Positions 18,794 through 62,621 of a stretch of DNA of 64,000 nt are shown piece by piece. The DNA lies in assembly GCA_951406725.2 (NCBI GenBank), contig OX597828.1:59768001-59832000 (forward strand), read 5' to 3'. The notes below the pieces were generated by a model. That model was not told where the DNA came from, ran no database searches, and saw only the letters and a list, made by a program, of their open reading frames with translations. Each line of letters starts with the position of its first letter. Within the stretch, counting starts at the first letter, position 1. The position numbers and the translations under genes are program-made. This DNA is from Octopus vulgaris (Eukaryota).

Positions 18794-20450
18794 CTAGTTT
18801 TGTTCAAGTAGTGAGTTCTTGTTGGGTGAGTTGTATCCAATTATGGGTGGCTTATCTGGTATTCTTTGAAGGAATCTATCCAGACTCTGTTTGAAGTTGA
18901 TGGGATCCTTTTCCTCTTTGATCTCTCTCCGGACAATGTTAAATAGGGCAGGGCCTGTTGAGGAAAAGAAATTATGTTGCAGTGTACATGTATGTTGTGA
19001 TCTTGAATTGGGCAGGGGACGTATAGCCCGTGGTCCAAGTCTTGGATGAACCTTGAAGCTAATGTTTAGGTCGTTTGGGCATAGTTGGCGGTATATTTTC
19101 CACATCGTACAAATGATGTACCGCTCACGGCGACGCTGGTGGGAGTAAAGTTTCAAGGCTTTAAGGCGATCCCAATAATTGAGAGCAGCCACGCCTTCAA
19201 TTCGTTTAGTGAATGCCCTCTGGGGTGACTCAATTCTGGAAATGTTTTGTCTTTTGTGAGGAGACCACAGTGGGCAGCAGTATTCAAGGTGTGGCCGTAC
19301 AAAGGAGGAAAAAAGTGGTATGATGACACCTTTTTCTCTGGACCGGAAAGTTCTTAAGATCCAGGAACTCATCCTACGAGCTATATCGACCTTGTCGATG
19401 TGTGCACTCCAACTGAGATCGTCATCAACAATTACACCCAGGTCTCTGATATTGTTAGAGGCTGTGAGCGGTTCCCCTGAAGGAAGAGAGTATGGTTGTT
19501 TTAGTGAGGAATTTCTTCCAAAATGCATCAGCTCAAATTTTCCCCTCGTTCAGTTGCATTTTGTTTGTCTGCCCATTGACTCACATCATATAGATCAGAC
19601 TGGAGTTGAGTTCGGTCTGCTTCTTCATTGACGATTTGCTGGAGCTTGGTGTCATCAGCAAATATTTTCACTTTGCAGTAATGTACGACACTGGAAAGGT
19701 CGTTTATGTAGATTATGAAGAGTAGCGGACCCAAGACAGTCCCCTGAGGGACACCGCTGGTGACTTTTGCTTGGCTTGAGTGGACTCCATCAACTACATG
19801 TTGTGTTTTATTCGCCAGGAAATACTTGATCTAGTGTAGAACATTTCCACTGATTCCAACATTTGCCAATTTTGAGAGTAGGATATTATGGTCGACCCTG
19901 TCGAACGCTTTACTGAAGTCAAGATATATGACATCAGAGTTCGAACCTGTTCCCAAGGCTTTGAGTACATCTTCAATGTGGTGTAAGAGCTATGTTAGAC
20001 AGTCCCTGCCACAGCGAAAGCCATGCTGATTTGCATTTAGGAGTTTCTGGGTCTCCAGGAAGTCAGCCATCCTTGATCTTAACACTCTTTCAAACACTTT
20101 GATGATGTGGGAGGTGAGTGAGATTGGGTGATAGTTGAATGCGAGGGATCTGTTTCCCTGTTTGAAAACCGGGATGACTGACTGGGATAGAAACTGTTTT
20201 GGTATATACCTGCATCTAACGAATTTTTCCAGAGGTTGGTCAGAGGGACTGCAAGTTGAAATCTACATTCCTTCAGGAGACTAGCGGGAAATCTATCAGG
20301 GCCTACAGCAGAGTAATGTTTGACCTCATTTATTGCTGCTACGATGTCGGTGGCAGTGAAGGTTATGTCTGCGATTTCATGTTGGGAGTCAACTTCGTTT
20401 GCTTCTCTTACGTCAATATCAGTGGGAACACGAAAGACAGCAGTATTGTT
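18794..20450 (-). pseudogene. Decayed CR1-like LINE RT, copy 1
   Basis: Broken ORFs contain GPDRFPASLLKEC, LGPLLFIIYINDL, FADDTKL, RPHLEYCCPLWSP and QRRRERY, with several frameshifts. Confidence 0.9.
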
Positions 20451-20749: not shown

Positions 20750-21035
20750 AGAGTTAATTAGCTTCCATAATACATTTTGATAATAGTCGTAATGTAATAA
20801 AATGTTAGGGAGGTAACTTTTGAAGATCTCCCTTTCTAGAGTTACCCCCCTTGCATATTATTAATTAAATTATAATATGCGAGGTAAGTAACTCTTCGAA
20901 GGAAGATAACTCCAAAATCTTCCAGAGTTACCTCCCTTACATCTAATTAAATTACTATTATTAAATTAGAATATTCAAGGGAAATAGGTACAAAATTTTC
21001 CAGAGTTACTTCCCTTACATGTAATTACATTACGA
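20750..21035. repeat. Block of short inverted motifs (agagttac..ccc / ggg..gtaactct) immediately before the telomeric tract; also at 39240-39530, ~15090-15330, ~35370-35600 and ~5950-6140
   Basis: AGAGTTACYTCCCTT and its reverse complement recur in alternating orientation. Confidence 0.7.
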
Positions 21036-21092
21036 TTGGGGTTGTGGTTAGGGTCGGGGTCGGGGCTAGGGTTAGGGTTTGGGTTGGGGTTA
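21036..21092 (+). repeat. Short degenerate telomeric tract (TTAGGG/TTGGGG/TCGGGG)
   Basis: Sequence ttggggttgtggttagggtcggggtcggggctagggttagggtttgggttggggtta. Confidence 0.85.
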
Positions 21093-22835
21093 GCCTCGTT
21101 CACACATCATGCGTCCATACAAACACGCCTCGTTCACACATCATGCGTCCATACAAACACGCCTCGTTCACACATCATGCGTCCATACAAACACGCCTCG
21201 TTCACACATCATTCGTCCATACAAACAAGCCTCGTTCACACATCATGCGTCCATACATACACGTCTCGTTCACACATCATGCGTCCATACAAACAAGCCT
21301 CGTTCACACATGCGTCCATTCAAACGAGCCTCGTTCACACATGCGTTTATTCAAACGAGCCTCGTTCACACATGCGTTCATTCAAACGAGCCTCGTTCAC
21401 ACATCATGCGTTCATTCAAACGAACCTCGTTCACACATCATGCGTCCATACAAACAAGCCTCGTTCATCCATCATGCGTCCATACAAACAAGCCTCGTTC
21501 ACACATGCGTCCATACATGCAAGCCTCGTTCACACATCATGCGTCCATACAAACAAGCCTCGTTCACACATCAAGCGTCCATACAAACAAGCCTCGTTCA
21601 CACATCTTGCGTCCATACAAACAAGCCTCGTTCACACATGTGTCCATACACACAAGCCTCCTTCACACATCTTGCGTCCATACAAACAAGCCTCGTTCAC
21701 ACATCAAGCGTCCATACAAACAAGCCTCGTTCACACATCATGTGTCCATACACACAAGCCTCGTTCACAAATCATGCGTCCATACAAACAAGCCTCGTTC
21801 ACCCGTCATGCGTCCATACAAACAAGCCTCGTTCACCCGTCATGTGTCCATACAAACAAGCCTCGTTCACCCGTCATGCGTCCATACAAACAAGCCTCGT
21901 TCACCCGTCATGCGTCCATACAAACAAGCCTCATTCACCCATCATGCGTCCATACAAACAAGCCTCGTTCACCCATCATGCGTCCATACAAACAAGCCTC
22001 GTTCACCCATCATGCGTCCATACATACAAGCCTCGTTCACCCATCATGCGTCCATACAAACAAGCCTGGTTCACACATCAAGCGTCCATACAAACAAGCC
22101 TCGTTCACACATCATTCGTCCATACATACAAGCCCCGTTCACACATCATGCGTCCATACCAACATGCCTCGTTAACCCATCATGCGTCCATAAAAACAAG
22201 CCTCGTTCACACATCATGCGTCCATACAAACAAGCCTCGTTCACACATCTTGCGTCCATACAAACAAGCCTCGTTCACACATCATGCGTCCATACAAACA
22301 AGTCTGGTTCACACATCAAGCGTTCATACAAACAAGCCTCGTTCACCCATCATGCGTCCATACAAACAAGCCTCGTTCACCCATCATGCGTCCATACAAA
22401 CAAGCCTCGTTCACCCATCATGCGTCCATACAAACAAGCCTCGTTCACCCATCATGCGTCCATACAAACAAGCCTCGTTCAACCATCATGCGTCCATACA
22501 AACAAGCCTCGTTCACCCATCATGCGTCCATACAAACATGCCACGTTCACACATCATGCGTCCATACGCACATGCCTCGTTCATACATCATGCTTCCAAA
22601 CAAACAAGCCTCGTTCATCCATCATGCGTCCATACGCACATGCCTCGTTCATACATCATGCGTTCATACAAAAAGCCTCGTTCACACATGCGTCCATACA
22701 AACAAGCCTCGTTCACACATGCGTCCATACAAACAAGCCTCGTTTACACATCATGCGTCCATACAAACAAGCCTCGTTCACACATCATGCGTCCATACAC
22801 ACAAGCCTCGTCTACACATCATGCGTCCATACATA
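21093..22835 (+). repeat. 34-bp tandem satellite (gcctcgttcacacatcatgcgtccatacaaacaa), ~50 units, with a 31-bp variant lacking CAT
   Basis: Unit starts at 21093 and 21127 give a period of 34. Units are head-to-tail with no spacers. Confidence 0.95.
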
Positions 22836-35115: not shown

Positions 35116-38100
35116 TGTTTATACATATAGATATTTATATATATGTACATGCGTGTATGATTCGATGTCCCCAAAACCGCTTGACAAGCGATGCCGGTGA
35201 TTTTTACACTCCATCAACTTATCCGTTCGGGAAAAGAAGACCAACAGAATAAATACTAGACTGATGTAGGATAAAATTCTTTGTGTCGATTTGCTCAAGA
35301 AAAGGATGTGCTCCAGCATGGGCACGGTGAAATGACTTAACCAGGAAATGAGTAAAAGTAAATGTAAGGGAAGGAAGATTTTTCTAGTTATCTCCCTTTC
35401 CAGAGTTACTCCCCTTTCTTTTTATTAGTAATTAAATTATAATATGCAAGGTAAGTAACTCTACAAAGGAAGATAACTCCAAAATCTTCCAGGGTTACTT
35501 CCCTCACATATACTGATAATTGTTAAATATACTAGGCAAGGGATGTAACTCTAGAAAGGGAGATAATTACAAAATCTTCCAGAGTTACTTCCCTTACATG
35601 TATCCGTCTTTGTGTACGTGAAACTGTTTTTATTTTTGTGTGTGTGAGTGTCGGTAGTTTCATTTCAGTGTTTGTGTTTGTGTGATTGTTTTTATTTCTG
35701 TGTGTATGTGTGTGTGAACCTATGTGCGTTTTTATCCGTTTGTGTCTGTGCGACATTTACAGCTACAACAAACACTTTAAGCATCTCCAAGATACCCACA
35801 TTTGCAGATCCCTAAGTTCTAAATGAAAAGAAGTTCAATTTATTACACCTTTAGCGACTTCAGATTTGTGAGTATTAAGCATCCAATGCCTCCCGTATCT
35901 ACATACCTGGATTGGCCATAATTGGCCTCATTCGGATATCTCTCGGGTGTGGAATATTTATAGCTTAACTTTTGTAGATTTTGGGAAGTTCATAGATGTT
36001 ACTGGCTTTGCAGTGAAATCTAGTCAAGCAATTTGTCTGGTTTTTTGTTTAATCGTGTTGGAACTGGTGGATAAGAGTAGACAGTTTGGTCATTACCTTC
36101 GAACGACTGTAGCTGTTTTCCTCCCTGTATTTTAGCGGTTCGGCAAAAGAGAATAAGTTAGAATAAAATACTAGGCTTACAAAGAAGTGCTGCGGACGAT
36201 GTGATCGACTAAAGGCGGCGCTCCAGTATTTATATATATATATGTATATATACTTACAGATATACGTGTATATACCCACATACGCATATATACTATATAA
36301 AACAAAAAAGAAACTTGATTATGTCATTATTACTTTATTACAGATATTACAACATGAAACGTATTATATGACGTTAGGGAAGTAACTCTAGGAGATATTT
36401 TCTGCGATCTCCCTAGTGAACAGGTCATGGACTTTTCTCGTTATTTACTCTTTTACTCTCATTTACTTGTTTCAGTCATTTGACTGTGGCCATGTTGGAG
36501 CACGACCTTTAGTCGAGCATATCGACCCCAGGACTTATTCATTGTAGGCCTAGTGCTTATTCTATCAGTCTCTTTCGCTGAACCTCTAAGTTATGGGGAC
36601 GTGAACAGACTAGCATCCGTTGTGTAGCAATGTTTGGGAACAAAGACACACACGCACACATAAACATATATATGACTGGAGTTTTCCCGTTTCCTTCCAC
36701 CAAATCCAATCACAAGACTTTGGTCGGCTCGTGGCTATAGTAGATTTTTCAAACGATGCTGGTGTGTTTTCCTCCCTGTATTTCAGCGGCTCGGCAGAAA
36801 AGAATAAGAATAAATACTAGGCTTAGAAAAAATAAGTGCTGCTGACGATGTACTCGAAGAAGATAGATTGGTATATATATATATATATATATATCTAAGT
36901 AATTAATTAATAAGGGTGAGAGAATTAGATACTAATTTAATAGTATATCTATTCTACACCAAGTGGCCTAGTGCTCCGAGAAACCTGGATTATTATAATA
37001 TTTTATAATATATTATAATATTTTTACAAAATAAATATAAGAGAGTGGTCACATAGTGACCACTCTCTTATATTTATATATCTAAGTATATATTTATAAA
37101 GATATATCAGATATATATAAACTTAGATAAACTTAGATGTGTTTCGACCAAAGATTGGTCCAGGCCATGTCTAACTTAATAGCACCACCTGATAGGATTA
37201 TTCGAATCCTGGTTAAGTCAAGTTTTGTTCAAGTAGTGAGTTCTTGTTGGGTGAGTTGTATCCAGTTTTGTTCAAGTAGTGACTTCTTGTTTGGTGCGTT
37301 GTATCCAATTATGGGTGGCTTATCTGGTATTCTTTGAAGGAATCTATCCAGACTCTGTTTAAAGTTGATGGGATCCTTTTCCTCTTTGATCTCTCTCGGG
37401 GAAAATGTTCAATAGGGCAGGGCCTGTTAAGGAAAAGAAATTATGTTGTAGTGTACATGTATGTTGTGATCTTGAATTGGGCAGGGGACGTATAGCACGT
37501 GGTCCAAGTCTTGGATGAACCTTGAAGCTAATGTTTAGGTCGTTTGGGCATAGTTGGCGGTATATTTTCCACATCGTACAAATGATGTACCGCTCACGGC
37601 GACGCTGGAGGTAGTAAAGTTTCAAGGCTTTAAGGCGATCCCAATAATTGAGAGAAGCCATGCCTTCAATTCGTTTAGTGAATGCCCTCTGGGGTGACTC
37701 AATTCTGGAGATGTTTAGTCTTGTGTGAGGAGACCACAGTGGGCAGCAGTATTCAAGTTGTGGCCGTACAAAGGAGGAAAAAAGTGGTATGATGACACCT
37801 TGTTCTCTGGACCGGAAAGTTCTTAAGATCCAGGAACTCATCCTACGAGCTATATCGACCTTCTTGTTGATGTGTGCACTCCAACTGAGATCGTCATCAA
37901 CAATTACACCCAGTTCTCTGATATTGTTAGAGGCTGTGAGCGGTTCCCCTGAAGGAAGAGAGTATGGCTGTTTTAGTGAGGAGTTTCTTCCAAAATGCAT
38001 CAGCTCAAATTTTCCCTCGTTTCGTTGCATTTTGTTTCTGTTTGCCCATTGACTCACAGCATATAGATCAGACTGGAGTTGAGGTCTGCTTCTTCATTGA

Positions 38101-39530
38101 CGATTTGCTGGAGCTTGGTGTCATCTGCAAATATTTTCACTTTGCAGTAATGTACGACACTGGAAAGGTCGTTTATGTAGATTATGAAGAGTAGCGGACC
38201 CAATAGATTATGAAGAGTAGCGGACCCAAGACAGTCCTCTGGGGGACACCGCTGGTGACTTTTGCTGGGCTTGAGTGGACTCCATCAACTACAACATGTG
38301 TTGTATTCGCCAGGAAATACTTGATCCAGTGTAGAACTTTTCCACGGATTCCAACATTTGCCAATTTTGAGAGTAGGATATTATGGTCTACCCTGTCGAA
38401 CGCTTTACTGAAGTCAAGATATATGACATCAGAGTTCGAACCTGTTCCCAAGGCTTTGAGTACATCTTCAATGTGGTGTAAGAGCTGTGTTAGACAGTCC
38501 CTGCCACAGCGAACGCCATGCTGATTGGCATATAGGAGTTTCTGGGTCTCCAGGAAGTCAGCCATCCTTGATCTTAAAACCCTTTCAAACACTTTGATGA
38601 TGTGGGAGGTGAGTGAGATTGGGCGATAGTTGAGTGCGAGGGATCTGTTTCCCTGTTTGAAAACCGGGATGACTGACTGGGATAGAAACTGTTTTGGTAT
38701 ATACCTGCATCTAACGAATTTCTCCAGAGGTTGGTCAGTGGGACTGCAAGTTGGTGTTTACATTCCTTCAGGAGACTAACGGGGATTCTATCAGGGCCTA
38801 CAGCAGAGTAGTATTTGACCTCATTTATTGCTGCTATGATGTCAGAGGGAGTGAAGGTTATGTCTGCAATTTTGTGTTGGGAGTCATCTTCGTTCGCTTC
38901 TCTTACGTCAATATCAGTGGGAGCACTAAAGACAGCAGTATTGTTTCTGCAATATATATAGAGCAACATGTATATACATATAGATATTTATATATATGTA
39001 TATATGTGTGTGTTTCGATGGCCCGAAAACCGTTTCACAAGCGATGCCGGTGATTTTTACACTCCATCAACCTATCCGTTCGGGAAAAGAAGACCAACAG
39101 AATAAATACTAGACTGACGTAGATAAAAGTACTAGTGTCGATTTGCTCTAGAAAAGGCTGTGCTCCAGCATGGGCACAGTGAAATGACTAAACAAGGAAA
39201 GGAGTAAAAGTGTATGCGTTACGTCTGAACATTATATTGTAGAGTTAATCAGCTTCCATAACATTTTGATAATAGTCGTTATTTAATGAAATGTAAGGGA
39301 GGCAACTTTTGAATTTTATTTTAGTTATCTCCCTTTCTAGAGTTACTCCCCTCGAACATTTCAATTTAATAATACATAATAGTAATTTTATTAGATGTAA
39401 GGGAGGTAACTCTGGAAGATCTTTTAGTTATCTTTCTTTCTAGAGTTACTCCCCTCGAACATTTCAATTTAATAATACATAATAGTAATTTAATTAGATG
39501 TATGGGAGGTAACTCTGGAAGATCTTTTAG
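27352..39530. repeat. Large composite repeat unit, copy 2
   Basis: Largely colinear with copy 1, but lacks the 4340-5781 LINE, the internal ~4.5-kb duplication and the 16571-18640 insertion cluster. Confidence 0.85.
37225..38950 (-). pseudogene. Decayed CR1-like LINE RT, copy 2
   Basis: Contains YLDFSKAFDRVDH, SGVPQRTVLGP and RPQLEYCCPLWSP. A 26-bp tandem duplication at ~38178-38228 breaks the frame. It is a paralog of 18794-20450. Confidence 0.9.
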
Positions 39531-39927
39531 TTAGGGTTGGGTTAGGGTTGGGGTTGGGATTGGGGTTGGGGTTGGGTTAGGGTTGGGTTAGGGTTTAGGG
39601 TTAGGGGTTAGGGTTAGGGTTTTAGGGTTAGGGTTTTAGGGTTGGGTTAGGGTTAGGGTTAGGGTTGGGGTTGGGTTGGGGTTAGGGTTGGGTTTAGGGG
39701 TTAGGGTTAGGGTTTGGGGTTAGGGTTAGGGTTAGGGGTTGGGGTTAGGGTTGGGTTGGGGTTAGGGGTTAGGGTTTGGTATATACCTGCATCTAACGAA
39801 TTTCTCCAGAGGTTGGTCAGTGGGACTGCAAGTTGGTGTTTACATTCCTTCAAGAGACTAACGGTTAGGGTTAGGGTTGGGGTTAGGGTTGGGGTTAGGG
39901 TTAGGGTTGGGGTTAGGGTTAGGGTTA
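39531..39927 (+). repeat. Interstitial telomeric tract (TTAGGG with TTGGG/TTGGGG/TTAGGGG variants) interrupted by a 90-bp LINE fragment
   Basis: Read directly from the sequence; the G-rich strand is plus throughout. Confidence 0.95.
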
Positions 39928-40737
39928 CAACATAGGTAACACTGCTAACCCGGCCACCTTAGACAGCTATTGGTTGACCTATAGCTACCTTGGCTTTTCA
40001 GCAAACTAATCAATTTAACTCTGATCACATTCTGCTAAAGTTTTCAATCAACAGTGTTTGTGTGTATCAACATTTTGTCTTTAACAAAAATTACAAAAGA
40101 ACAACAATAACATGGGCAGATGAAGGCTGGCACTCTGTTGTTTTCTTCATTCACACAACAAAGGACAGAGAATCTTTAAACAAAAACAGTTGATGTGAAA
40201 TAGAAGAATTATATAGCATAACAAGGTATTTTTTTTTCTCTTTCTTTGCGTTCGGTTTTGTAGGAGGGGTTGTGATATTTTTGTAACTGTTTCGTGTTTA
40301 CTGTAACTTTTTTTTTTTTGGCAATCATTTTATTTTATTTTATTTTATTTTATTCATTCTTTTTTTTGCTTTTTTGTTGTTTTTGTTTTTTGTATTATAA
40401 CATTTGTCAGTAGGTTGGGGGTGTTTAACAAATAAAAGTTGAGCTTCAAAATAAACCAGTAAACTTTCTTTGAACACGCAAAGCAGGCTCGGTGTAGGTT
40501 TAACAAGAGGATGGAAAAGAAAAAGAGATTAAACAAATTTTAAGAAACTGAGTCATAACAGTATGTTGAAGAAATAGTAAAGGTTTTCATAGTGTCCCTG
40601 TTAAGTGATGCCTACTATATACGGGACCCTTCCTTACACACTCCCTATTTTTCTTAAAAACTAGGCCCTTCTGTACAAAATTAAAAGTCACTCAGTTGAA
40701 AGACAACAATTTTTTTTTCAAAAAACCTATAATGATA

Positions 40738-40855
40738 TTTCCTATAAGCATGCCTATAGATTCCTTCTTCGATAAGCATGCCTAGAGATTTCTTCCTCTA
40801 TAAGCATACCTATAGATTTAGAACTCATCTATAAGTGTGCCTATAGATTTCTTGT
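40738..40855 (+). repeat. Short ~29-bp minisatellite, ~4 units (ctataagcatgcctatagatt...)
   Basis: ataagcatgccta/ataagtgtgccta recurs at ~40745, 40772, 40800 and 40831. Confidence 0.7.
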
Positions 40856-41169
40856 ATAGGGAAGGTGAAATGGTAAGTTATAAAAAAACATCCAGTCCTG
40901 AGAACTGAAAACAAATTATGGACTTGGTTTGTCAAGGAACGATCATCTGCAACAGGATGATGAGGTGGTCACTGATTTCTTCAGTACATATAACAATGAG
41001 AAATGGAGGGTTAGTGAGGTTCATGTCTTTCCCAAAGAGCATTAACAATGAAATATATGAAGCATTTCCAGCTGGGAATCAAAATCCCATCAGATTGTTG
41101 ATTTCTCAGGAACTTACCGGCTTAAACACAGAAGCCACCAATATCAATAATGGTTTCCGGTCTAGGCAC

Positions 41170-42088: not shown

Positions 42089-44491
42089 CTAAATGTAAGA
42101 ATATATTGTATTTACACTGGTCCCTTGGTAACGTTTTGAAGATTTATGTCCTGAGCAGTGTTTCTTGAATGTTGATGTTGGCTGTGGGGAAAGAGCAACA
42201 ACATCTAAATTATTTAAGTAATTACTATCAGAAACAGAATCACAATGGGATGATAATTTCGATGAGGTGTGCTTACTGCGGTGATGTCGTCTGTGTTTGT
42301 GTTTTTTGTGTTTTTTATGACTTTTCCGCCGCCGTTTGCAAGCAATGATTTCTACACTTGAAGAATGCGATCGATTTTGAGAAACAACAGGGCTTGAAGG
42401 TCTGTAGCCATCTCTCTTTCTGCACGATTCATTGTTGTAATTAGTATCATAGTTGTAAATACCGCTGGAAAGGTCTGGCTGAGAAGAGCGGTGAGGATAA
42501 CCAACCCGATAGTAATTGTTGCAGGACAGTGGAAACATTATAGATTTCTGAGAAATGTGTAGCTGCAGAGATGAAGAAGAGGATGCAGTAGCTTCATCAC
42601 GTTGGTACCGACAACGAGATCGTTCTTCTCTAGAGTAACTAGAAGTCCGTTTGCTCTTGGAACGCCGAGAACGAGATCTAGATCTAGACCGTGATCTAGA
42701 AGAGTTGGATTGGCTATAGGAATAATGGCTGAGTCTGTGACTGTGGCGATGTCGTCGTTCACCACTATAAGATGAACTTGAGACATACCTGTGACGAGTT
42801 CTGCTCTGACCTCGCTCCTTACGAGAGGACTTTCTTTTTTCAGAATGGCCCTCTTTTGCATTTTCCCCACTCGTTGATGGTTGCCTTACGACAGTCAATG
42901 AATTTTTGTCTTTTGTCTCCTCAGTTTCTTCTTCAACAGAATCATCGTCTAAATCTGATATTAATATTGGCGAACGTTCAGCCCAAGGTTTTTCATAGGC
43001 AGTAATGATCACATCACTGTCGCCATCATCATTTTCCTCATCCCTGTTCAATTCAGTTCCACTGGAGTCAGAGCTGCTGTTGTCCTTCTTATCTGGCCGT
43101 TGATCAGTAGGCTCGGATTTCATGGAACTAGAGACCAGACTTGTGTCATGACTAGTTGATTCAACAGCACTAGTTGATGGTTCTGTAACTGACGTGCTGA
43201 AGATACCAGAAGGGCCTGGTTGAGGAGACTCCCAACCTGAAATTGCTGTTTGACTTGTGGTTGCCTCTCGGTCATTCTGACTCGTTTCAGCAGATGGTTC
43301 CCAAGAGGAGGAAGTCATAACTATTTGCTGTGAAGGATGACCTAGACTGATCGACAGAGATATACTGCTTTGATTGCCAGATGTAGTAGCAGTGGCAGTT
43401 GCTGTAGTTGTCTCTCGTGGTGAAAGTACAATAACATCATCATCACTGGATGAAGCTTCACTAGTATCTACCAGCTGAGTGAAGGGCATATATTGTGAAT
43501 TAGCATCATAGGAGCGCATATCATGCAATGGTGACTTTGCAAAATTCTCAAATTCATGAATGAACTGCAATGTATTTCGACCAACAAATGGAAAAATATG
43601 TTGGTAAAATTCCTCACTGCTGATTGGATAGCGCTTTACTAAATCAAGAATAAGTTCCATCACAAAGGTCACATGATTTTCTTGGTTACGTAGCAATGCA
43701 TTTAGTTCACGGTTTAACCAAGGGGCTAGTCGATGAACAGCTGTGGGGTTTTTCCTCAAGAAATCGGGTTTAATGTTACGGCAACCATGTAGATGCCTGT
43801 TTTTCACTACGCGTAAATTATTTCTGTATATATTGCGTCGGAATTCGACAGAGGCTGTCTGTGTTTGCTGTTGTTGTGACCGACGTAAAGAACGACGTAA
43901 ACCAGGTCTGGTATTGTAGTCAAGCTGCTGTGGTGCCATCAGAATCTCATCTCTCTGATGCTGGTTTTGCAGACCAAGCAATCGATCAATTGTTAAAGTT
44001 GTACGATAGCGAAACCGTTTCTCATTAGGTGGTTCATGTTTCTGAACATCGTACTGGTCATAGTCATCATAGGAACGCACATTGTGAATAATGCTCTTGA
44101 AAGGTTGCTTACAGAGTGGACATTCTGTTTTAATCTTTGACCACTCCAAAAGGCAAACGTAACAGAATGTGTGGAAACAACTGTCGGTGAAGGATTTATT
44201 CTCCAACTTAGATAGACAAATCGAACAGTTTGGCTCAGGCGACTGTCGTTGACTCCCATCACTTTCTTTATCAGCATTTTTTTCCTCTTCACCAATTTTG
44301 GGGTTACCAATATCTTTCTCATTGGCTGAGTTAGTGCCTAGACCAGTCTCATTGTTGGCCAGTTCACTGCTCTGTGACAGAGAAGTGGCACTGGCTGCAG
44401 TACTACTTGAGCCCTTGCTACCTTCCTTTTTACCTTTCCTTCTGTCCTTCTTGTCAGTATCTTTTCTCTTTTTCCTCTCCCCTTTCTCCAT
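42089..44491 (-). CDS. TOPORS: E3 ubiquitin/SUMO ligase Topors, single coding exon (~800 aa from ATG at 44491; ORF open to 44524)
   Basis: Has a C3HC4 RING (CSICL...CFHTFCYVCLLEWSKIKTECPLCKQPF), the Topors-type RFRYRTT and HRLAPWLNREL motifs, SIM-like VIVL/VIIT motifs next to acidic runs, and RS-rich and K/H-rich regions. Confidence 0.95.
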   Translation of the reverse strand: MEKGERKKRKDTDKKDRRKGKKEGSKGSSSTAASATSLSQSSELANNETGLGTNSANEKDIGNPKIGEEEKNADKESDGSQRQSPEPNCSICLSKLENKSFTDSCFHTFCYVCLLEWSKIKTECPLCKQPFKSIIHNVRSYDDYDQYDVQKHEPPNEKRFRYRTTLTIDRLLGLQNQHQRDEILMAPQQLDYNTRPGLRRSLRRSQQQQTQTASVEFRRNIYRNNLRVVKNRHLHGCRNIKPDFLRKNPTAVHRLAPWLNRELNALLRNQENHVTFVMELILDLVKRYPISSEEFYQHIFPFVGRNTLQFIHEFENFAKSPLHDMRSYDANSQYMPFTQLVDTSEASSSDDDVIVLSPRETTTATATATTSGNQSSISLSISLGHPSQQIVMTSSSWEPSAETSQNDREATTSQTAISGWESPQPGPSGIFSTSVTEPSTSAVESTSHDTSLVSSSMKSEPTDQRPDKKDNSSSDSSGTELNRDEENDDGDSDVIITAYEKPWAERSPILISDLDDDSVEEETEETKDKNSLTVVRQPSTSGENAKEGHSEKRKSSRKERGQSRTRHRYVSSSSYSGERRHRHSHRLSHYSYSQSNSSRSRSRSRSRSRRSKSKRTSSYSREERSRCRYQRDEATASSSSSLQLHISQKSIMFPLSCNNYYRVGYPHRSSQPDLSSGIYNYDTNYNNESCRKRDGYRPSSPVVSQNRSHSSSVEIIACKRRRKSHKKHKKHKHRRHHRSKHTSSKLSSHCDSVSDSNYLNNLDVVALSPQPTSTFKKHCSGHKSSKRYQGTSVNTIYSYI

Positions 44492-45437
44492 TATCACAAT
44501 TCTATCAATGTGACCACCACTCAAGATATATAGAGACTAGGTGGTAGTGGTGTTAAACCATATGGGGCACTTTGAGCAGCCCTAAATAGGGTGCCCCAAT
44601 ATTAAAAGAAAATAAGGTGGCAAGCTGGCAAAACTGTTTGCATGCCGAACAAAATGCTTTTTGCAGCATTTCTTTCAGGTTTATGTCCCAAGTTCAAATT
44701 CTGCTGAGGTCGACTTTGCTTTTCATCCTTTTGGGGTCAGTGAAATAAGTACCAGTTGAGAATTGGGGTCAACGTAATTGACTAGACCCTTCTCTTTCAA
44801 AATTTCAGGCCTTGTACTTATAGCAGAAAGAAATATTAAAAGCAAATCTTAGAAATTAGGAGGGTGTCTGTTCTGACCTGGCAGATATATTAATCAAAGA
44901 TGTTCCAGCCTTGACCATCACATTTATATCTTCTTTTTTTTTGTTTTGTCTCTATATTCACTATATTATCCAACAGTGTTCTTCCATTTTTAAAATGGTA
45001 GGAAGTCATTTGAGGAAGGCTTGGCTGTTATTTCTTGCAATTTCAATGAGTACATAGAGGATACCTTGTTTTGTTGTGTTGTGAACTATGTTCTTGTTAT
45101 TATTGTTTAACCCTGCCCACTCACCCCGGCTCGTTGGTAGACCTAAAATGTACTCCAGCCACATCATCCTGGGTTTTTTTTTTTTTTTTTTTTTTCTCTT
45201 TCTGATAAAACATTTCTACTCCTACATTATCTAATGTACCCTTCCCTTCTTTAAGACAGGGTGGGGTAATTTGGTTGCTATTTCTAACTGGCCAAATGAC
45301 CACATAAGGGCTCTGCTGTTGATTTTTGAAACTGATAATTAAATATGTCACCTCAGTCATCTTCATTTAAGGTTTGCATGGAATTAGCATTTCCTCAGTG
45401 CATCCCCCTCCCCTCTAATGACCTCAGTAAAGAGCAA

Positions 45438-51235: not shown

Positions 51236-52492
51236 TTTCACTCTATAGTTTAAACATCTTGAGGATTCAGTATTTTCATTCTTAGTATTTTTTGAGTTTT
51301 GTTTCAGTGGCAATTATTTTACAGCTGTAAAAAGAGTGGACACTAGTATGAAAGATCTCCATGGTACATGAGACTGGAAGTCACTAGAACAGCAGAAAAT
51401 TTCATTGATAGCTTAATCCTGACTACATATTATTAGCTGTATGTGTGTATCTAGGACTACATTAAATAAACGTAAATTACTTATTTAAGATGGTAGGGTG
51501 TGATTTGAGGTTGAGTTGGCTGCTATTACTTGCACACCAAGCAACATTTAGTTCAACATTGGCCAACTGTTTTATCCTTAGAATACATTACATGTCTCAT
51601 GGAAAACCTTACACAGCAATTATTCTATTTCTTTTTTAATCTTTTCATTTACCTTTCATAAGAGCTTAAATCTTAAAACATTCTTTGAAAGGTTTGTCAG
51701 TGTTAACTTCATCAGACATCACAAAGAAGGTTTTAAAATTTTATCTTTTTTACTAAGACCCTGTTTTCAACTGTATATCCCTACAATTCTCTATGAAGCC
51801 ATTTTTATGTAAAGTCTCTTTACTACCTACTGTTACCAGCATTTTTCTACTAAATATGTCACATATCATCATCATCATTTAATGTCCATCTTTCATGTTG
51901 GCATAAGTTCAACAGTTTAAGAGGATCCACCAAGTCTGTTCCAATATCTGATTTGGATGGTTTCTACAACTGGATGCCCTTCATAACACTGACCACTTTA
52001 CAGAGTAACTGTGTGCTCTTTTCCATGGCATCAACCCTAGTGAGGTCACCATGTCACTGAAGACTGAAGAACCCCTCAACTGGGTGGGAATAAAATAGAG
52101 GGAAACAGCTTTATGTTGAGAAATAAAGGGTTAAAATTTGAAAGTATATACAGTTAATTACAAACATATAATTAAATACAAAACTATATTTGTATAGAAT
52201 TAGTGTATTTCTCATTATTTCTTGCTAAATGCCTAGTGACCTGTGTGGGACCTAGCAACCTACTGCAAAAGTGTCACAAAACCCTTAGCAAACTCTTGTA
52301 GAGCTCCTTATGGGATCCTTTATAATTTCCTGTAGAATTACTAGCAATCTTCCATGGAAAATCTAATGAGCCCTTGCAGAACTACTAGTGACCTCTCACA
52401 GAACTACCAGGAATCTGTTGTGGAACCCCTAGCAACATATCATGAAACTTTGGTGGTAGACTTTGACCCCTTTTTTTTATGATTCTTTGTAG

Positions 52493-52767
52493 TTTCCCTG
52501 GGTCCTCGACATGGAGCCTTATACAGCTGAAGGGATGGCAAGGCGAGAGAGTGAAATCCTTCACAACTATTCTGATGAGGAGACTAGTGAGAAATCAACG
52601 TTGGGGTTGTCATGTCAGGAAGACTCGGCAGATGGTCAGTATGTTGATCCCGTCACCTCAACAAACCAAGTCATACCAAACCGAATACATTATGAACTTG
52701 TTGGCATTGTCGTCCATAGTGGTCAAGCTAATGCTGGCCACTACTACTCCTTTATTAAAGACCGCAG
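52493..52767 (+). CDS. USP24: Ubiquitin-specific protease 24, internal exon (His box)
   Basis: AG|FPWVLDMEPYTAEGMAR...YELVGIVVHSGQANAGHYYSFIKDRR|GTGAG. Confidence 0.92.
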
Positions 52768-53607
52768 GTGAGTTGCAGTGTTTCCAAGGATGACCACCAC
52801 TACTGCTGCTGCTACTGTCATTCCTTATTTCTCTTTTTCTTTTTACCTCTTCACTTAGGGAGGGAAAAGCAGCTCCCTTGACCCCTTTTATTTTCAGAGT
52901 CCACTGAAACTGGGGGGTGGGGAGGAAGTAAGGTGTGATCCTCAAACCAGAGACTTGGTCTCAAAGCTTCTAACAAGGTAATTCCCCCCTCCACACTGAA
53001 GTGACCCCCAGGACAAGTTGAGGGATCAAGTTTACTACAAAGCAAATCAGAACACAAAGGGAGGAAACAGACAATACAAGTTATCTGTATCAATTCCAGT
53101 GGTTAATTAGTAGTCATTAGTGCAGACCACTAAGTACCTTGTGGTATTTGTTCTGGATCTTCTAACTCTTGAGTTCAAATCCCACCTAGATCAATTAACT
53201 TTTCATCAATCAAATTCATCAATTCCCTGGTCAAGGAGTTGTTAGAACATTGTTAGAAACACCTTGTGGTATTTGATCCCTCACTTTGTGTTCTGAGTTG
53301 TTGTGTAGTAGATGTAACTCCTCACTTAATCCTGGGGTCATTACAGCCAAGTCTTTGATTTGAGGACTACTTCCTCCATCATTCCTAAGTGCTAACAAAA
53401 AAATTCTTACTTATTTACCAATATATATCTGTCTGTGTCTGCCAAACCATTTCCCTGTATGTTGAGTTTACTTCTCACTTTTATAATCCACCTCTCTCAG
53501 CACAGCCACTATCCTGCACAACAAAGAATTGACACATGACTTAGTGTTTTATACACATGCACATTCTCCTATTGATCTGATGAACCTTTTTTTTGTGTGA
53601 GTTGCAG

Positions 53608-53747
53608 AGGGACAGTCTCAACAAATCCTAAGAAGGGCTGCTGGTTCAAATTCAACGACATCACAGTAGAAGAGTTTCACATGACAGATGCCAACCTTGA
53701 AGCTGAATGCTTTGGTGGATTTTACAAAGCAAAAGTTTATGAGCAAA
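53608..53747 (+). CDS. USP24: USP24 exon (WFKFND Asp box)
   Basis: GTVSTNPKKGCWFKFNDITVEEF...ECFGGFYKAKVYEQ, with canonical splice sites and phase consistent with its neighbours. Confidence 0.92.
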
Positions 53748-54604
53748 GTAAGCATTGCCATATGTCTCTGACCAAATTATTATCAGATGTCTAGGAGCAA
53801 AAATATATGTGTGTGTGTCTATATAAATAGATGTACATATCTATCTAATATATATGTGTGTGTGTGTATATATATATGTCTATATAAATATATGTACATA
53901 TCTATCTATCTATCTATCTATCTATCTGATGTGTGTGTGTGTAGATATATGTACATATGGCTAAAACTTGCCCTGTTTATAATTGTACCACGTTACATAT
54001 TTATTATATCATACCTTGATACTGTGTGGACTAAGATCCCCGTCGACAGGCCACTGCTATTTATAGTATTAAATACTTTTGGTATGCAAATTAGGGACTC
54101 CTTCATAGAGTAACTGCTGCATTTGTTGAGTATATAAACAGTTTGGCTGTTTGTTTCTCTGGTGATTGTCAAAATGATGTGGCCACCTCTGATGAGAACC
54201 TAATAAGGGTTGAAAATCAATTAAACTTGTTCATTTTTTTCAGTCTGTGGAGAAATGGCTAAAATTTGCCCTGTTAATAGTTATACCATAAGTTACATAT
54301 CTATCTATCTATCTAGCTATATATATATTGTCAATAAAACATATATCAGAAAAGAAGCATACTCTAAAGAATAGAGCAGTAATTATTACAAAAATATAAA
54401 ATTTTGGACATAGAGTTGCCAAAGCCTTGGCACAAAAATAGAATGTAGAAGAGAGATGTAGTCCTCCACCCCCATCTAGGAGGAGCAGTAACTGGCAGAC
54501 TCGAGTGCAGCACAGAGGCAGCTGACATGAAAGGATGCGGGGGATTGGCTGAAATTTAATTCAATTGTAAAATATAAGACATCTGTCACTTCTGCTGCTT
54601 CCAG

Positions 54605-54743
54605 ACATGACCTACCCTGAAGATCGGATCCGTTATTGGAATGGTTATATGTTGTTCTATGAACGAATGGACGAACCGAAGACACCTGTTTCTGCAAAGA
54701 AATCCAAAGTTTCTCTGTCTAAATGTTCTCATTTTGAACCAAG
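54605..54743 (+). CDS. USP24: USP24 exon (end of catalytic domain; not in the ORF track)
   Basis: CAG|..MTYPEDRIRYWNGYMLFYERMDEPKTP...|GTAAG; phase 1 in and phase 2 out both match. Confidence 0.9.
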
Positions 54744-56879
54744 GTAAGTGTTTGTCTTTTCATTCTGGTTTCAATTAATACAAACTTTAATAACTGGAAA
54801 CCTTGTGTGTGTGTGGAGGGCAGCGTGCATAACATCTACAAAATAGCTTATCTGTAGGAAAGACGTGTTAGAAGGATGACAGGGCAGACTTTGTGTCGAT
54901 GGAGAGGTGTAGGAATGACAACCTTCCAAAATGTTTGTTGCTATGGAAACCTCAACAGTAAGCAAAACAAACCTGCTTGTCTTGAGCAGGAAATGCTCCT
55001 CCCTGCTCTCAAGACATGATATCCTGGAGTAGAAGCTCTTCTAGGTGGGCATTGATGTCTTAGGAGCTCAGAATATCTTGTTTAAGATGTTGCACAGAGG
55101 ACAGTTTATCTCCTGGTAACCAGCTGCAGGACTGAGAATCATCTCAGTTGTTTTGGCCATTTTGATTATTGTGAATTTTATTATTTATTCAATGCACACA
55201 TCGTGATCATTGGGCAGATACTGTAAGCACTCTGCTAACTCACTACCTTAAGGAAAAGAAAGGGATGATGAAAGCGAAGTGATGGTCAAGGCTGGAATGC
55301 CTTTGATCATAAGTTTGTTCAATATCCATGCGCCTTGGGTTAAATAACAGCTACAAATATCTTTGTGTGCTGTCAGTCTGACGATTATCTGTTCTGTAGC
55401 GAAATGATTGAATGAGCAACATGAAAGATCTCCAGTGGAGCCGTAAAGTATTTCTGATTATTCTGACAAATGTAAGGCTTAAGTATTCACACCTTTTTGA
55501 ATTAATCTTACATCATCATTATCATCATCATCATTGTTTAACATCCGCTTTCCATGCTAGCTTCGGTTAGCATCATTTCATAGCTTTGAGATTTCAATGA
55601 TGTGACATAATTATTTTTAAAATGACACTAAAGCAATTATGAAAGACCATATCTGATCAGTTTGAAAAGGAAACAGAATATTTTGGCTGGATATGGCTAG
55701 TTTAAACACTGAAGGGTTAAACAGATACACTCGCACAGACATTGCCTCAGTTCACTAAACGTCAGTAAACATTTCTGACCTACAATAAATGTGTTTGTGA
55801 AATGGAACACGTGTCTTTCATCCTCTGACAATAGCAGACATTGAGAGATGAAAGTGGAGGAGGTGAATTATTAATTGTTGTTGTATGGATGGATACACCC
55901 AGTATCAAACATCAGTTGAAATGTACATGTGTGAGTGAGTGAAGGGGTGTGCTGTCATGTATATGTACATGCATGAATAAATAGGCGTACATCTTTGTGT
56001 GTGTGATAGGTAGAGTGCCATTTAGACATTCTTCCTCTCTCTCACAAACACACACACACACACACACAGAAAAAGATGTTTACATATGTATTTATGTGTG
56101 TACGTATACATGACAACACACCCCTTCAAACAGACACACACGTACATACAGAAACACGTGGGTGTGTGTGTGACTGACTACAAATAGATACCAGATGTGT
56201 ACACGGCATGCAGAAAGGAAATAAACTGAAAAGCATTATGGAAATGAAACCTGGAGAGAGAGAGCATTGCAAACAATGAATGAGATAAACATGGAATGAA
56301 AAAAATCATACAAATAAAAGCAAGTTAAAAAAAGTCTCTAGTTTCAAATTTTTAAATTTGTGAACTCCATAAATGTTTCTTTCAGTAATTTGTTTTAGTT
56401 GTTTACAAATAGCGAACATTAAAATGGAGACTGAGTGACTTTGCCGTTTTTACGTCAATACTGGAAGTTGTCTTTGAGAAACCTTTTTAAAAAAGTAAAT
56501 CATTAATATAAAGCAATATTTGATATTTTTAATTTTAAAAAATCAAATGAAGATCCTATTATGTGTCCGAGGTCAAATAATTCATGCATCACAGGTATGG
56601 AAGTAATTGGTGAAGACGTTTTCACGTGAAAAGCGAATACACACACATCTCTATTTTATAAAAAAAAAAAACTTTCAGGGACAAACGTGGTTTATTGAGA
56701 CGGCAGGTTTTGGATATTTTTGTGTGAGTGTTTCATAATGAGTAGGTGACCAGAGTTGCCAGGTGTGTGAATAAGAATTCCAGGGCTGCATATATTTCAT
56801 AGGTTTTACTCACTATGAAACATATGTAGTCCAGACCTTATCTACTCTATTCCATAACTCTTGTATGTATGTATATATA

Positions 56880-56911
<32 letters not shown>

Positions 56912-57203
56912 CTAGCAGTATCGTCGGCGTTGCTCGGGTTTGTAAGGGAAATAACTATATAAGCATTTTTAGAGAGTTACTTCCCTTATATAAAACCGAG
57001 CGAAAAATGGATTAAAAATGGGGAAAAGTGATGGTAATTTTTTTTAAATCGTAGACGCACACTAATACTCAGAAGGGCTCGATATGAATCACGACTATAA
57101 GATACCCACTTTTGGTTAAACTGCACCGCAAAATATGGGAGTAGTTAGGAATCTAAATCTGAGTAGACAGACACACACACAACTACAGTTTTATATATAA
57201 AGA
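56912..57203 (-). mobile_element. Internally deleted copy of the non-autonomous Helitron
   Basis: Same ends as 16571-17202 (ctagcagtatcg..cggcgttgctcggg and cacaactacagttttatatata..ga), inserted in (TA)n. Confidence 0.8.
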
Positions 57204-58523
57204 TATATATATGTATGTATATATGTTTTAGTTAAAATTAAAGCTTAGGTAGGGAACTTTAAGGTGTAGTATGTGAACCTTGTTATGGGAATGTCCATTG
57301 TATTGTGCCTGTATAGCACATTCACTACTTGTGACTACCAGGCATCATCCGGGGTAGTAGTCTTTCATTGCTGGATGTACGTAGGGAATTTGTCAGTACA
57401 TGTTGAGTGTACAGAAGACAGAGCATACTGGAAGCGTTATGTAAGACAACGACAGTTTTGGCTTAATTCTACACTGCTCCTTAGTGAATGGGGATCGATG
57501 TAATGGAAACCTCTTCAGGCAACATAACTGCATGCATGGAAAACAGTTGTTAAACGATGATGATAATTATATATGTATATATATTTATTTTTATCACTAA
57601 AGTCATCTAGCAACATAGCAGCTAATTGCAAACTGAGGTGTTGTTTTAATTTCGCTTGGTGGGTCACATTTTGTGGCTGCCAGCAAAGACTGTATTGATG
57701 GAAAACATCAGAAAAGGAAAAATGGTCATCCTAAGAAACTTGCTGCCAGACATCCTGGGTAGACCTCATATGTTCATAGATCAGTTAAACAGAAATAACA
57801 ATTTCCTCTGATTAGCCATGCTGTTTGAGGAAACTGTTTTATGTGTCCCCTAAAGTGGGAAGAGCCAAGTGTTAAACCTGTATAATCCCATACGTTAAAT
57901 ATAATATGTGAACAGATTTCCTCATTGACTGGTCAGTCAGTTGTATGTCCTTGTTGCTTAAGGCCCTAGGTGATAATAAGCCTACTAATTTAGTCAGTCC
58001 AAAAATGTTGCTTTGGTGTTGTGACCTTCAGTGTTGTATGATTTATTATATATATCACCATCATTTAGTATCTTTGTTCCATGCCAGCATAGGTTGGAGT
58101 TTTTGATCATAATCTGATGTGTCCAAGGACTGCATTTAGCTCCAATGTCTGCTTTGTCATGGTTTTTATGGTTGGATGTCCTTTCTAACATCAACCAATA
58201 TTCTAATCCCACAGGCAGTCTCACTCCTTCCTCATCTTCTTTGTTTTAGAGGCATGGAATCCTACTCTTTCAGTAATGTGTGGACAGAGATCCTCGTTGA
58301 CACAGCATTCGTTTGTCATTGTAATCATCTTCTTAATGTCCTTGCATGCCTAGTTTGTTAAGATTTTCTGCAGCCAGATGTCTTCCCTGTCACCAACCTG
58401 TATTCGGTTCTAACCTGAGGCTGACCAAAGCCTTGTGTTTGGTCAACTGTAAGAAGCCTGTTCACACACACACACTTATATCTCTCTAATAATCCCATTG
58501 TCATCTCATCTTCTCCACCATAG

Positions 58524-58722
58524 ACGCAGTTTGAACTCTGACAGCCTGGTCGAGTTAACAGAGTTGGTCCACAAAGGGGAAAAACGTGGTATTTTCACAG
58601 AGAAGATGCCAGCAAGCATTGAGAAGGTGATTGGCACCGAGAACATAATCTTTGTCAAGAACAGAGACATTTACAACAATGAGTATTTCCGTTTCATCAA
58701 GAACCTGGCCGCAGTTAATGCA
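58524..58722 (+). CDS. USP24: USP24 exon
   Basis: RSLNSDSLVELTELVHKGEKRGIFTEKMPA...KNRDIYNNEYF resembles vertebrate USP24 (KGEKKGLFVEKMPA, from memory); AG/GT sites present. Confidence 0.9.
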
Positions 58723-58727
58723 GTAAG

Positions 58728-58760
<33 letters not shown>

Positions 58761-59058
58761 GTACTGCTGTTGTTGTTGTGATGACATCAAACCTGTCCCT
58801 CTTTGAGGACTTCAATGGGACCTTCACAAAGTGGCAGGAGCACTGCAACAGATGCATTGAAGTGAGAGGATCCTACTTTGAAGGAGGTCAGAGTTTTGGA
58901 CCAATTTGAAATTAATAAAGGTCTCTCCTGAAAGAGTTTGAAAAACTTATGGAATGCCACTTGTAAATTATGACCAGATATCGAGAATCGTGGTGTCTTG
59001 TGGTGTATCATGAATGTGGGTGTAATGTACACTCATAAATTAAGTCATGCTGTGTTAT

Positions 59059-59097
<39 letters not shown>

Positions 59098-59776
59098 AGG
59101 AAAAGGGAGGAGGAGAATTTTGATTATTCTCATGTGGTAAGTTGTAATGCAAAATAGATATATATATAAAATAAAAGAAAAACATGCACACAGTTTACAT
59201 AGTTTTAATATATTAAAGGCTGCTGTCAAATCACTGAAACAAGTAAAAGAATAAAAGAATATTTATAAGTGTTTGTCAGACAAACACAATACTCTTTCAC
59301 TTATAAACTATATTAAAACTATGTAAACTGTAAGCATTTTCCTTCTTTTATTTTATATATATTTTTGCATTATATATGTATGTATGTGTGTATGTATGTA
59401 GATAAAGATTTCTGTGTGGCACAATGGTCATTCATCCTTTCTTGTCGTTGGTCAGCAGCAACGGTTTGACACTCCTCTCTCTTCAAATTCAATTTCTGAA
59501 GGGTTCCACAGGTGTAATTCAAAGAGTGGGGATTTTTTCCCATTGTTTGGCACCACTTTTGACCAGGCGGTCCCACAATCCTCTCCTTGTCTTGCAAAGA
59601 ATCTCCCCACACACACACACCTCCACCTCTTTCAGTCCTCATACAATTTTGTTGATTACTTTTGTTGTTTTTGTTGTAACAGATCTATTTTTTACATTGA
59701 CTATATTGTTAGTCTTGTAGTCATTTTCCCCACCCTCCAGGGCTTTGCCATTTGTCTTCAACCCGTTCACCTAAAT

Positions 59777-60420
59777 ACAAAGCTGGGTTAAAATTTTCAT
59801 AGGCTGATTATGAAGGAGTGATGCTAGGGCTGTGAAAGCTTGCATGCATCAATTTAAACTCTTCATTAATAACTGCATTGTTTCTTTCCGGGTAAACTGA
59901 CATCTGACTGTTCAAAGAAGACATCAGATGTAACTAGTAGTAACTTCTCTTGAAAATGAACTAAATTTGGCATTTTGGTCTTATCAAGTACCAGCAGAAA
60001 AAGGGTTTAGACCCCCAAAGACGTTCATACTAACATGGTTGCTACATTAGGTGATGGACACTCAAACTTTATCAACAGTGCAAAAGGGGACAGCTGAATT
60101 TAGGAGAGAAAAGGAGAGTCTTGAATATGACCCAATGTCAGGACATCCTGAAATGGCCACCACCAAGGTAAACATTGATCATGTTCACCACATAGTGATG
60201 GATGACAAGCGATTGATTATAACTCAAATAGCCAATGCTGTTAGCCATATCCTGTGAGGGAGTAGAGAATATTCTGCACAATGAACTTGGCATGAAGGTT
60301 TCTGCTTGGTGGGTGCCACATCTTCTGACATCTGACCAAAAGTGCACCAGGCCAATCACATCATGGGAAAATTTGACAGGGAACATCCAGCTGGTTTTCT
60401 TGAATGTTTCGAATTCCTTG
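59777..60420 (+). mobile_element. Mariner transposase remnant in a USP24 intron
   Basis: AEFRREKESLEYDPMSGHP...ILHNELGMKVSAWWVPHLLTSDQK contains the mariner WVPHxL linker; it is frameshifted. Confidence 0.85.
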
Positions 60421-60695
60421 AGAATATCTTGGTCATCCTATGAACTTTTCCAACCAAAGATTTGGCTCTCAGGTTCCCTGAGGCGTGACAGGACACGATT
60501 TATGCAACAGAAGAGAGGCTGAGTGTGTTGTATAGTGTGTTGGTAGTTATTAAACCCTGGGCTGAGAGATTAATGTTGACTTCAATTGGAACTGAACACT
60601 GAATGCTGGTGTTTGGAACTAAATACTTCTTCCTCTCCCTCTGTAACCATGTACTGTCCCCTTTTGACTAAACCACTCCATTCATCTCTCCACAG

Positions 60696-60799
60696 GCTCA
60701 TGAAACTGACCCCAACTACAGTAAGTTATGTGTACAGTCGCTCCAGCTGGCCATGAAATTCCTCATCAATACGTACTTCAGAGCAAAACTGAAGACAAA
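60696..60799 (+). CDS. USP24: USP24 exon
   Basis: CAG|AHETDPNYSKLCVQSLQLAMKFLINTYFRAKLKT|GTAAG; phase consistent. Confidence 0.85.
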
Positions 60800-61118
60800 G
60801 TAAGAAAGTCTAATTTTTATTTTCTGATTCACTGAAAACATCTAGCAGCCAGGATGTCTGTCCTGACTCTGTTTGATAACATTGATAAAGAAGGGACAGA
60901 GCCCAGTAATTTATTTATATCCAATGTACCAGTAATTAACTAATCTCTAGTGTACCAGTAATTATTTCTGTCCATGAATTTTAAATTATTGACAGCCTGT
61001 ACAATTTATCAAGTTTTATATCCACTCTCCTCCCATAGAAAGACATAAAATTGCTAAATTTTCACATAAATGACAGACATAACTTTGGTTTAATGTTGTT
61101 GTTGTTGTCGTTGTTCAG

Positions 61119-61232
61119 GGCTGAGTTAGATGACTGGGTCACTGTGATTGAGATGTTGGTCACTCGCTGCAAAGAAGCCTGCATGTGCCTGGTCGACATG
61201 ATTGGAGAAGACGATGGTTACACCTACATCAA
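61119..61232 (+). CDS. USP24: USP24 exon
   Basis: AELDDWVTVIEMLVTRCKEACMCLV...YI|GTAAG; phase consistent. Confidence 0.85.
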
Positions 61233-62521: not shown

Positions 62522-62621
62522 GTCCTTTCTGCTGGAATGTCCAAACAAAGATGTTCGGCTTACCCTGGCCAAAATCCTCCAACGTATGATGAATAGCTTC
62601 TTTCAACATGGTGCCGTAGCT
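62522..62621 (+). CDS. USP24: USP24 exon
   Basis: SFLLECPNKDVRLTLAKILQR...|GTGAGT; the FLLEC..VR motif is typical of the USP9/24 family. Confidence 0.87.

Follow-up and report, generated by a model that had tools for sequence, protein, structure and literature searches.

A candidate templated insertion of a LINE segment within an interstitial telomeric tract of Octopus vulgaris

The window, i.e., the whole stretch of 64,000 nucleotides of Octopus vulgaris DNA that was analysed, contains a telomeric tract (39530-39927) which is interrupted by a 90-bp segment of a LINE that matches a sequence shortly upstream at all positions except one. The tract is interstitial, as 24 kb of non-telomeric, gene-bearing DNA lie beyond it, a position that is missing from the initial annotation of this DNA. 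We give an even chance to the reading that a chromosome end, once healed, took its own subtelomere or that of its sister as a new template, resumed telomeric repeats and afterwards was joined to an arm that had been broken. The structure is likely a scar of a known kind of repair, and we propose no function for the insert beyond that of a repair record.

The 90-bp insert and its donor

The following features concern the insert and the sequences related to it.

39775..39864, + strand: 90-bp insert, an internal LINE segment copied so that it lies antisense to the LINE on the + strand; 89 of 90 positions identical to 38693-38782
38693..38782, + strand: closest donor, 1,082 bp upstream of the insert on the same strand; carries a 1-bp frameshift
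37359..38987, - strand: broken LINE (non-LTR retrotransposon) remnant that holds the donor, with ORF pieces; RVT_1 match (E 1.4e-18) on 38185-38757
20198..20287, + strand: paralogous segment within the unit 18639-20874, identical to the insert at 82 of 90 positions; has the 1-bp deletion, too

At the level of the assembly sequence, the alignment agrees with the initial annotation, which had reported a same-strand match with one mismatch. This sole mismatch is one G>A (G38771 in the donor, A39853 in the insert), the exact match stops sharply at both ends, and the BLAST E value within the window is 1e-41. The several differences from the paralog near 20200-20290, which had been claimed as well, were recovered when the three segments were aligned. 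The unit that contains the paralog is 90.7% identical to 37070-39374. A window-wide scan for copies of 40-400 bp with at least 96% identity and at most 5 kb apart, in which queries in the satellite block 21000-27400 were left out, gave two matches, namely the insert/donor pair and a tandem duplication of 81 bp. Another, older LINE at 4311-5705 (+), which belongs to a different LINE family and has an open RT ORF of 464 codons (RVT_1, E 7e-25), was rejected as donor, since its matches are confined to short segments with 66-81% identity.

The sequence TATATACC is common to insert, donor and paralog, with a shift of the reading frame at this place. Contigs of the LINE family have one extra A before 39785, which is absent from insert and donor, and loose contig ends at 39785 with this extra A are present in at least 15 contigs of the contig set X16 and at least two of X1, as well as in an entry for X2. 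Among the X16 contigs listed, at least one aligns as far as 39775 and continues in donor-type flank. The family is very abundant, with a summed X16 contig depth of ~5 x 10^5 on the insert versus 83-85 on the flank, values that do not give a copy number. Since the frameshift is common to insert and donor, and absent from most family contigs, the local dead copy or a close sister of it can be assumed to be the donor, rather than a freshly retrotransposing element, and the insert appears to derive from the dead-copy LINE lineage that includes the local donor. X16 record 9 crosses the frameshift site gap-free, with four other differences; the deletion is thus not unique to the local copy, and a more distant donor is possible. 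Moreover, the insert is internal LINE coding sequence upstream of the RVT_1 match and contains neither a LINE 3′ end nor poly(A), and therefore classical retrotransposition by target-primed reverse transcription fails as an explanation. Ordinary retrotransposition, which the initial annotation had named as the alternative to local copying, is not supported by this internal fragment with its shared frameshift; a target-site duplication cannot be defined inside telomeric repeats.

The telomeric tracts and their flanks

The tracts, the repeats at their left side and the genes beyond them are as follows.

21035..21093, + strand: short degenerate telomere-like tract that ends a paralogous unit and is followed by 34-bp and 15-bp satellites
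39281..39533, + strand: tandem repeat with a unit of 103 bp (2.4 copies), whose third copy breaks off at TTTTAGTTA and gives way to telomeric repeats
39530..39774, + strand: left telomeric tract of 40 irregular units (17 TTAGGG, 8 TTGGG, 6 TTGGGG, 9 others)
39865..39927, + strand: right telomeric tract of 10 regular hexamers (7 TTAGGG, 3 TTGGGG) plus TTA
39928..41150, no strand assigned: unique DNA after the join, with single-copy depth in X16; in both X16 and X2 it runs on into other sequence
42089..44536, - strand: ORF of a TOPORS-like RING E3 ligase, open over 815 codons
49283..50422, - strand: ORF of GTF2H3/Tfb4, open over 379 codons (Tfb4 E 1.4e-98, profile positions 2-273 of 273)
52475..63999, + strand: USP24-like 3′ exons, from the His-box exon onward

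The tract starts within the third copy of the 103-bp repeat with a telomere seed of 4 nt, GTTA, at TTTTAGTTA. Seeds of at least 4 nt are offered by 45 of 2,525 upstream positions, and the GTTA site is likely the healing site, which fits healing by telomerase. At the left junction of the insert the microhomology ranges from TT to TTTGG (2-5 nt), with only TT in the canonical repeat register, and at the right junction it is GG (2 nt); a seed of at least 2 nt is offered by 964 of the 2,525 positions in 37000-39525. These microhomologies appear no better than chance. The joins through tttgg and gg, described in the initial annotation as telomere-compatible, have the letters given there, but are weak evidence. 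The right junction (39857-39868) also forms a short palindrome, CTAAC-G-GTTAG, out of the insert end and the first repeat; fold-back priming via this palindrome is improbable, as the 1-nt loop would be too tight.

As had been noted before, TTAGGG repeats follow the insert, with ten hexamers at 39865-39927, after which the tract ends. Since a broken gene region is joined on after these 63 bp, the insert belongs to a junction that arose by fusion or repair, or else to a join made in the assembly. The two tracts differ in length (245 bp left, 63 bp right) and in texture, with non-hexamer units making up 17 of 40 on the left and none of 10 on the right (Fisher p ~0.01, in a count that took one 2-letter fragment as a unit). 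The right tract is no exact copy of the left one, and copying from there was rejected, with a longest shared run of 23 nt (5 of 10 units by pattern). In both tracts the A is missing from about a third of the units (TTGGGG or TTGGG), and such mixed repeats may be typical of telomeres in the group to which O. vulgaris belongs. The ten units of the right tract contain three A-to-G variants at one repeat position and the insert differs at 1 of 90 positions (95% interval 0.03-6%), which makes simple decay of fresh TTAGGG unlikely. Either the right tract was copied from a variant-rich telomere, or telomerase makes mixed repeats; with TTGGGG in three of ten, the resumed repeats need not be a fresh telomerase product.

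The left block (1-39530) is a mosaic of duplicated units with 85-96% identity and of satellites, and the only recognisable ORFs in it are LINE pieces, a composition that appears subtelomere-like. The degenerate tract at 21035-21093 has the same orientation as the tract 39530-39927. It passes directly into 52 copies of a 34-bp satellite, which are followed by 302 copies of a G-skewed satellite with a 15-bp unit, and the whole stretch 21035-27399 is possibly an older end that was extended by satellites. Two perfect tandem duplications of 26 bp (38178-38229) and 81 bp (29744-29905) are either recent slippage or consensus artefacts. Furthermore, a perfect 22-bp inverted repeat with a 3-nt loop (37031-37077) marks the left border of the LINE unit that is duplicated, and a duplicated unit at 8143-8342, 12666-12859 and 31749-31942 has two short, opposed telomere-like motifs ~180 bp apart in each copy.

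On the other side, the right tract is joined in the assembly to unique DNA at 39928. Several small contig sets hold this flank at high depth and look like transcriptomes, and therefore 39928-41150 is probably part of the TOPORS 3′ UTR; these sets are annotated as "DNA?" or "?", and none as RNA. The join probably clips a transcript ~165 nt before the end of an X2 contig. A metagenome scan for the flank start gave 0 matches. The ORFs neighbouring the join are free of frameshifts, which speaks in favour of our preferred reading. The TOPORS-like and GTF2H3 ORFs are antisense to and upstream of the first USP24 exon found, and are probably nested in a long USP24 intron. With eight homologues as queries, no USP24 exons upstream of the His-box exon (Cys box etc.) were found within the window, and in all four USP24 queries checked the Cys box is located ~270-300 residues ahead of the His-box motif. 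As these 5′ exons are absent from the window, either the left block lies in its entirety in an intron of >52 kb, or the join cuts the gene. The best-matching named USP24 homologue, a partial model of Argonauta hians (P0073; 65-100% identity per exon), begins in the same exon, which hints that the long intron is ancestral. It is possible that the join at 39928 is a mis-join or a structural variant. Unless a long intron had taken up the block, USP24 would be severed by the join, and this counts against our preferred reading.

Support in sequencing runs and competing explanations

A search with 42 sampled words from 39755-40150 listed 20 sequencing runs, and all 42 words were present in none of the 17 runs that hold part of this region. 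The share of words found was 0.79 for X1, 0.71 for X16, 0.67 for X2 and X20, 0.52-0.57 for nine small contig sets, and 0.21, 0.12, and 0.12 for X8-X10, respectively. According to position, ~22 of the 42 words are expected to fall on the flank, 5.5 on sequence shared with the donor, 4.0 on pure telomere, and 10.3 to be specific for the insert or the join. Flank, donor and pure telomere words alone amount to 31.6 of 42, about the best share of X1. Therefore, only the flank is represented in the runs with 0.52-0.57, and not even the share of X1 requires a specific word; this share was rejected as proof of the join, since the three words by which X1 exceeds X16 might all come from pure telomere. 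Four of the 20 runs were aligned to 39755-41150, with the letters at 39854-39932 and 40320-40398 masked. In the raw-read run X17 no reads aligned with ~3% of the run read. No read or contig that spans either insert junction was found in the aligned runs, in which 39854-39932 is masked, and the diagnostic A at 39853 is reached by none of the contig pieces listed.

Among the competing explanations, an assembly or consensus artefact survives best, in which a chimeric read, or merged haplotypes or paralogous ends, put a 90-bp overlap plus telomere beside unrelated DNA. We consider it unlikely. Besides the incomplete word sets, it is favoured by the geometry of two contigs: X16 record 15 (depth 82.6) extends 348 letters and X2 record 23 (organism B) 170 letters to the left of 39933, and for neither is a piece listed on the 79 unmasked insert bases, with the longest pieces kept. 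From this geometry, i.e., from piece lengths with the letters masked, we infer that an unbroken allele that crosses 39928 and is free of the insert exists in the X16 and X2 organisms; such an allele is likewise expected at the breakpoint of a telomere-spanning arm fusion. An artefact would also fit with the parting of USP24 from its 5′ exons, with the homopolymer-length variants of the left tract, which resemble errors of noisy reads (the non-hexamer units described above), and with the presence of the 26-bp and 81-bp perfect tandem duplications in the same left block. Contigs, however, show presence and not absence, and assembly-graph cleaning readily removes short paths between very deep repeats. 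Moreover, the start of X1 record 7 (depth 4.6) agrees with that expected from a real join. It lies 34 letters left of 39933, equivalent to 39899, one base off the start at 39898 that is predicted for a 31-mer contig entering telomere repeats; the chance of an end so close is 0.01-0.06 under rough assumptions that were chosen after the data had been seen. This supports the join, not the insert, and as X1 is possibly the source sample, its evidence is not independent. The single base that distinguishes the insert from its donor fits better with a real copy than with a consensus duplicate. Finally, at 40970 and 41118 the window has the letters of organism B, differing from X16, which suggests that the window is a real second haplotype. 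The other flank contig of X1 has X16-type letters at 40710-40720, where these differ from the window. In X1 record 8 (depth 2.3), position 40637 is joined to 21 letters with C-strand telomere-like repeats for which the window has no match; this contig may be a library chimera.

A single template switch has a lower probability and is rather improbable in our opinion. Here, the end would have invaded an allelic or paralogous end that had already been broken and healed at ...CTAACGG, and would have copied its last 90 bases together with the telomere. In this way the G>A and the variant-rich right tract would be accounted for without new mutation, and the block is indeed segmentally duplicated, with other deletion-bearing copies in existence (X16 record 9). 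On the other hand, a healed end in this very LINE copy would have to exist unseen, the contigs listed do not reach the A at 39853 that it should share, and a local donor is enough.

Still less probable is that the sequence was never a working telomere, but was formed in one double-strand-break repair that joined two internal ends, in which repeats added by telomerase and an insert templated via polymerase theta served as filler, as in interstitial telomeric sequences. Telomeric-repeat insertion at repaired breaks (PMC2246262, PMC7215372) and germline cases with small local duplications (10.1101/2023.11.30.569101) are documented, and the shortness of both tracts would be in line with such an event. 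Against it, the two tracts appear to be of different ages, given the degenerate left tract with a texture unlike that of the right; the left block resembles a subtelomere, and the two flanks are not both sides of one locus within the window. Least of all do we expect the 90 nt to be RNA-templated, by a telomeric 3′ end that primed endonuclease-independent reverse transcription within a transcript of the abundant LINE family, stopped after 90 nt and was healed, because the insert matches the frameshifted local copy instead of the family majority and has no poly(A) or 3′ end, and because its cDNA-like orientation (antisense to the LINE on the G-rich strand, with the LINE on - and the G-rich tract on +) arises one time in two by chance, even though L1 insertion at uncapped telomeres (PMC4700185) and endonuclease-independent insertion (PMC1920257) are described.

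A possible course of events and likeness to known systems

According to the preferred reading, a healed end that switched template in cis, a break in the 103-bp repeat would have been healed with telomeric repeats at 39530, probably by telomerase starting from the GTTA seed; cut and seed can be read directly from the assembly. The shortened 3′ end may then have primed on its own or the sister duplex at 38693 via the 2-5 nt of microhomology and copied 90 nt, with break-induced replication through microhomology (MMBIR) in cis or polymerase-theta templated insertion as putative routes to the copy seen in the assembly. Released at ...AACGG, the end would have gained ~10 hexamers, either by telomerase or by a second switch onto a variant-rich telomere. 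Last, the short telomere might have been joined at 39928 to a broken arm, or the whole block been inserted there; the join itself is present in the assembly, the other allele is suggested by the contig geometry, and fusion or large insertion would be the event behind it. The order of these steps is likewise what we infer. The initial annotation had let the telomeric 3′ end invade its own subtelomere, and a local, DNA-templated copy in the same orientation remains the best reading. Strict t-loop invasion did not stand, since the donor is located ~750-840 bp inside non-telomeric DNA, and the junction seeds lend it little weight.

There is a small chance that the structure is a heritable variant that segregates in a wild octopod lineage, in which a short, repaired telomere with at least 39 kb of subtelomere is fused to or inserted in the long USP24 intron and the TOPORS 3′ end. 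If this were true, it would keep a dated record of three steps, namely healing, template switch in cis and fusion, by which crises at telomeres remodel the chromosomes of cephalopods, and mixed TTAGGG/TTGGGG repeats would have to be synthesised or copied in this group. A real and inherited structure would document at base level, in a normal animal, a telomere crisis, a local template switch and the joining of an end to an arm, processes for which most descriptions come from cancer cells, mutants of telomerase, and fungi; as a candidate structural polymorphism it would also involve USP24 and TOPORS. An artefact, in turn, would point to a mis-join in the assembly by which USP24 is split. As a single locus, it adds an example and not a mechanism.

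Close precedents for the preferred reading come from yeast, Magnaporthe, Caenorhabditis elegans and human cells. A literature search over titles and abstract beginnings, in which few subscription papers were covered, found no such structure described in a cephalopod, whereas interstitial telomeric sequences as such are the subject of several reports (PMC2246262, PMC7215372, PMC8537989). In yeast, SUL1 and Y′ amplicons are described as products of MMBIR in cis at telomeres (PMC13081905). As proposed for the octopus, the telomeric 3′ end, being short, invades its own chromosome further upstream via few bases and appends a same-orientation copy, and in the octopus this copy does come from the same chromosome end, with sister and homolog being indistinguishable. 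The yeast end, however, invades an internal telomere sequence of ~7 bp and copies through to the chromosome end, giving rise to kb-scale tandem arrays (PMC13081905), whereas the octopus insert is a single 90-bp copy with no internal telomere seed longer than 2-5 nt, and its synthesis would have stopped early. Since there are neither run-through copying nor arrays, we do not class it as MMBIR in cis.

In Magnaporthe, internal sequence is also duplicated at a de-capped end by D-loop/BIR repair, and ends are later internalised by end-joining, but the process is driven by the MoTeR retrotransposon in a fungus, and the one donor mapped is located ~157 kb from its telomere (PMC7367193). The TALT (template for ALT) elements of C. 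elegans resemble the octopus structure in that unique DNA is located between telomeric repeats, and TALT2 has a similar size (135 bp). Unlike the octopus donor, which is flanked by LINE sequence and of which one copy was found within the window, TALT donors were already flanked by telomere-like repeats and were amplified to many ends (PMC8034613).

Templated inserts and local duplications are also known at telomere fusions in human cells (PMC4864465) and in C. elegans ALT survivors (PMC8034613), where they are short, copied from nearby DNA and are attributed to polymerase theta or related synthesis. The octopus insert likewise is a copy from near the junction (89/90, 1,082 bp upstream). The published inserts originate from crisis cells or telomerase mutants, and those scored in PMC4864465 are <50 bp, whereas the octopus insert comprises 90 bp, has repeats on both sides and is found in an animal genome assembly. 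A further parallel is the telomere-spanning arm fusion, or neotelomere formation followed by fusion, in which (TTAGGG)n is located left of the breakpoint ("inverted orientation") and a broken arm, in many cases within a gene, has received a short telomere (10.1101/2023.11.30.569101). Those fusions are known from cancer genomes with proof by long reads and karyotypes, and the octopus case is an assembly sequence in which an insert interrupts the tract; its TTAGGG repeats at 39865-39927 run in one orientation to the left of a breakpoint in non-telomeric DNA, as in the arm fusions.
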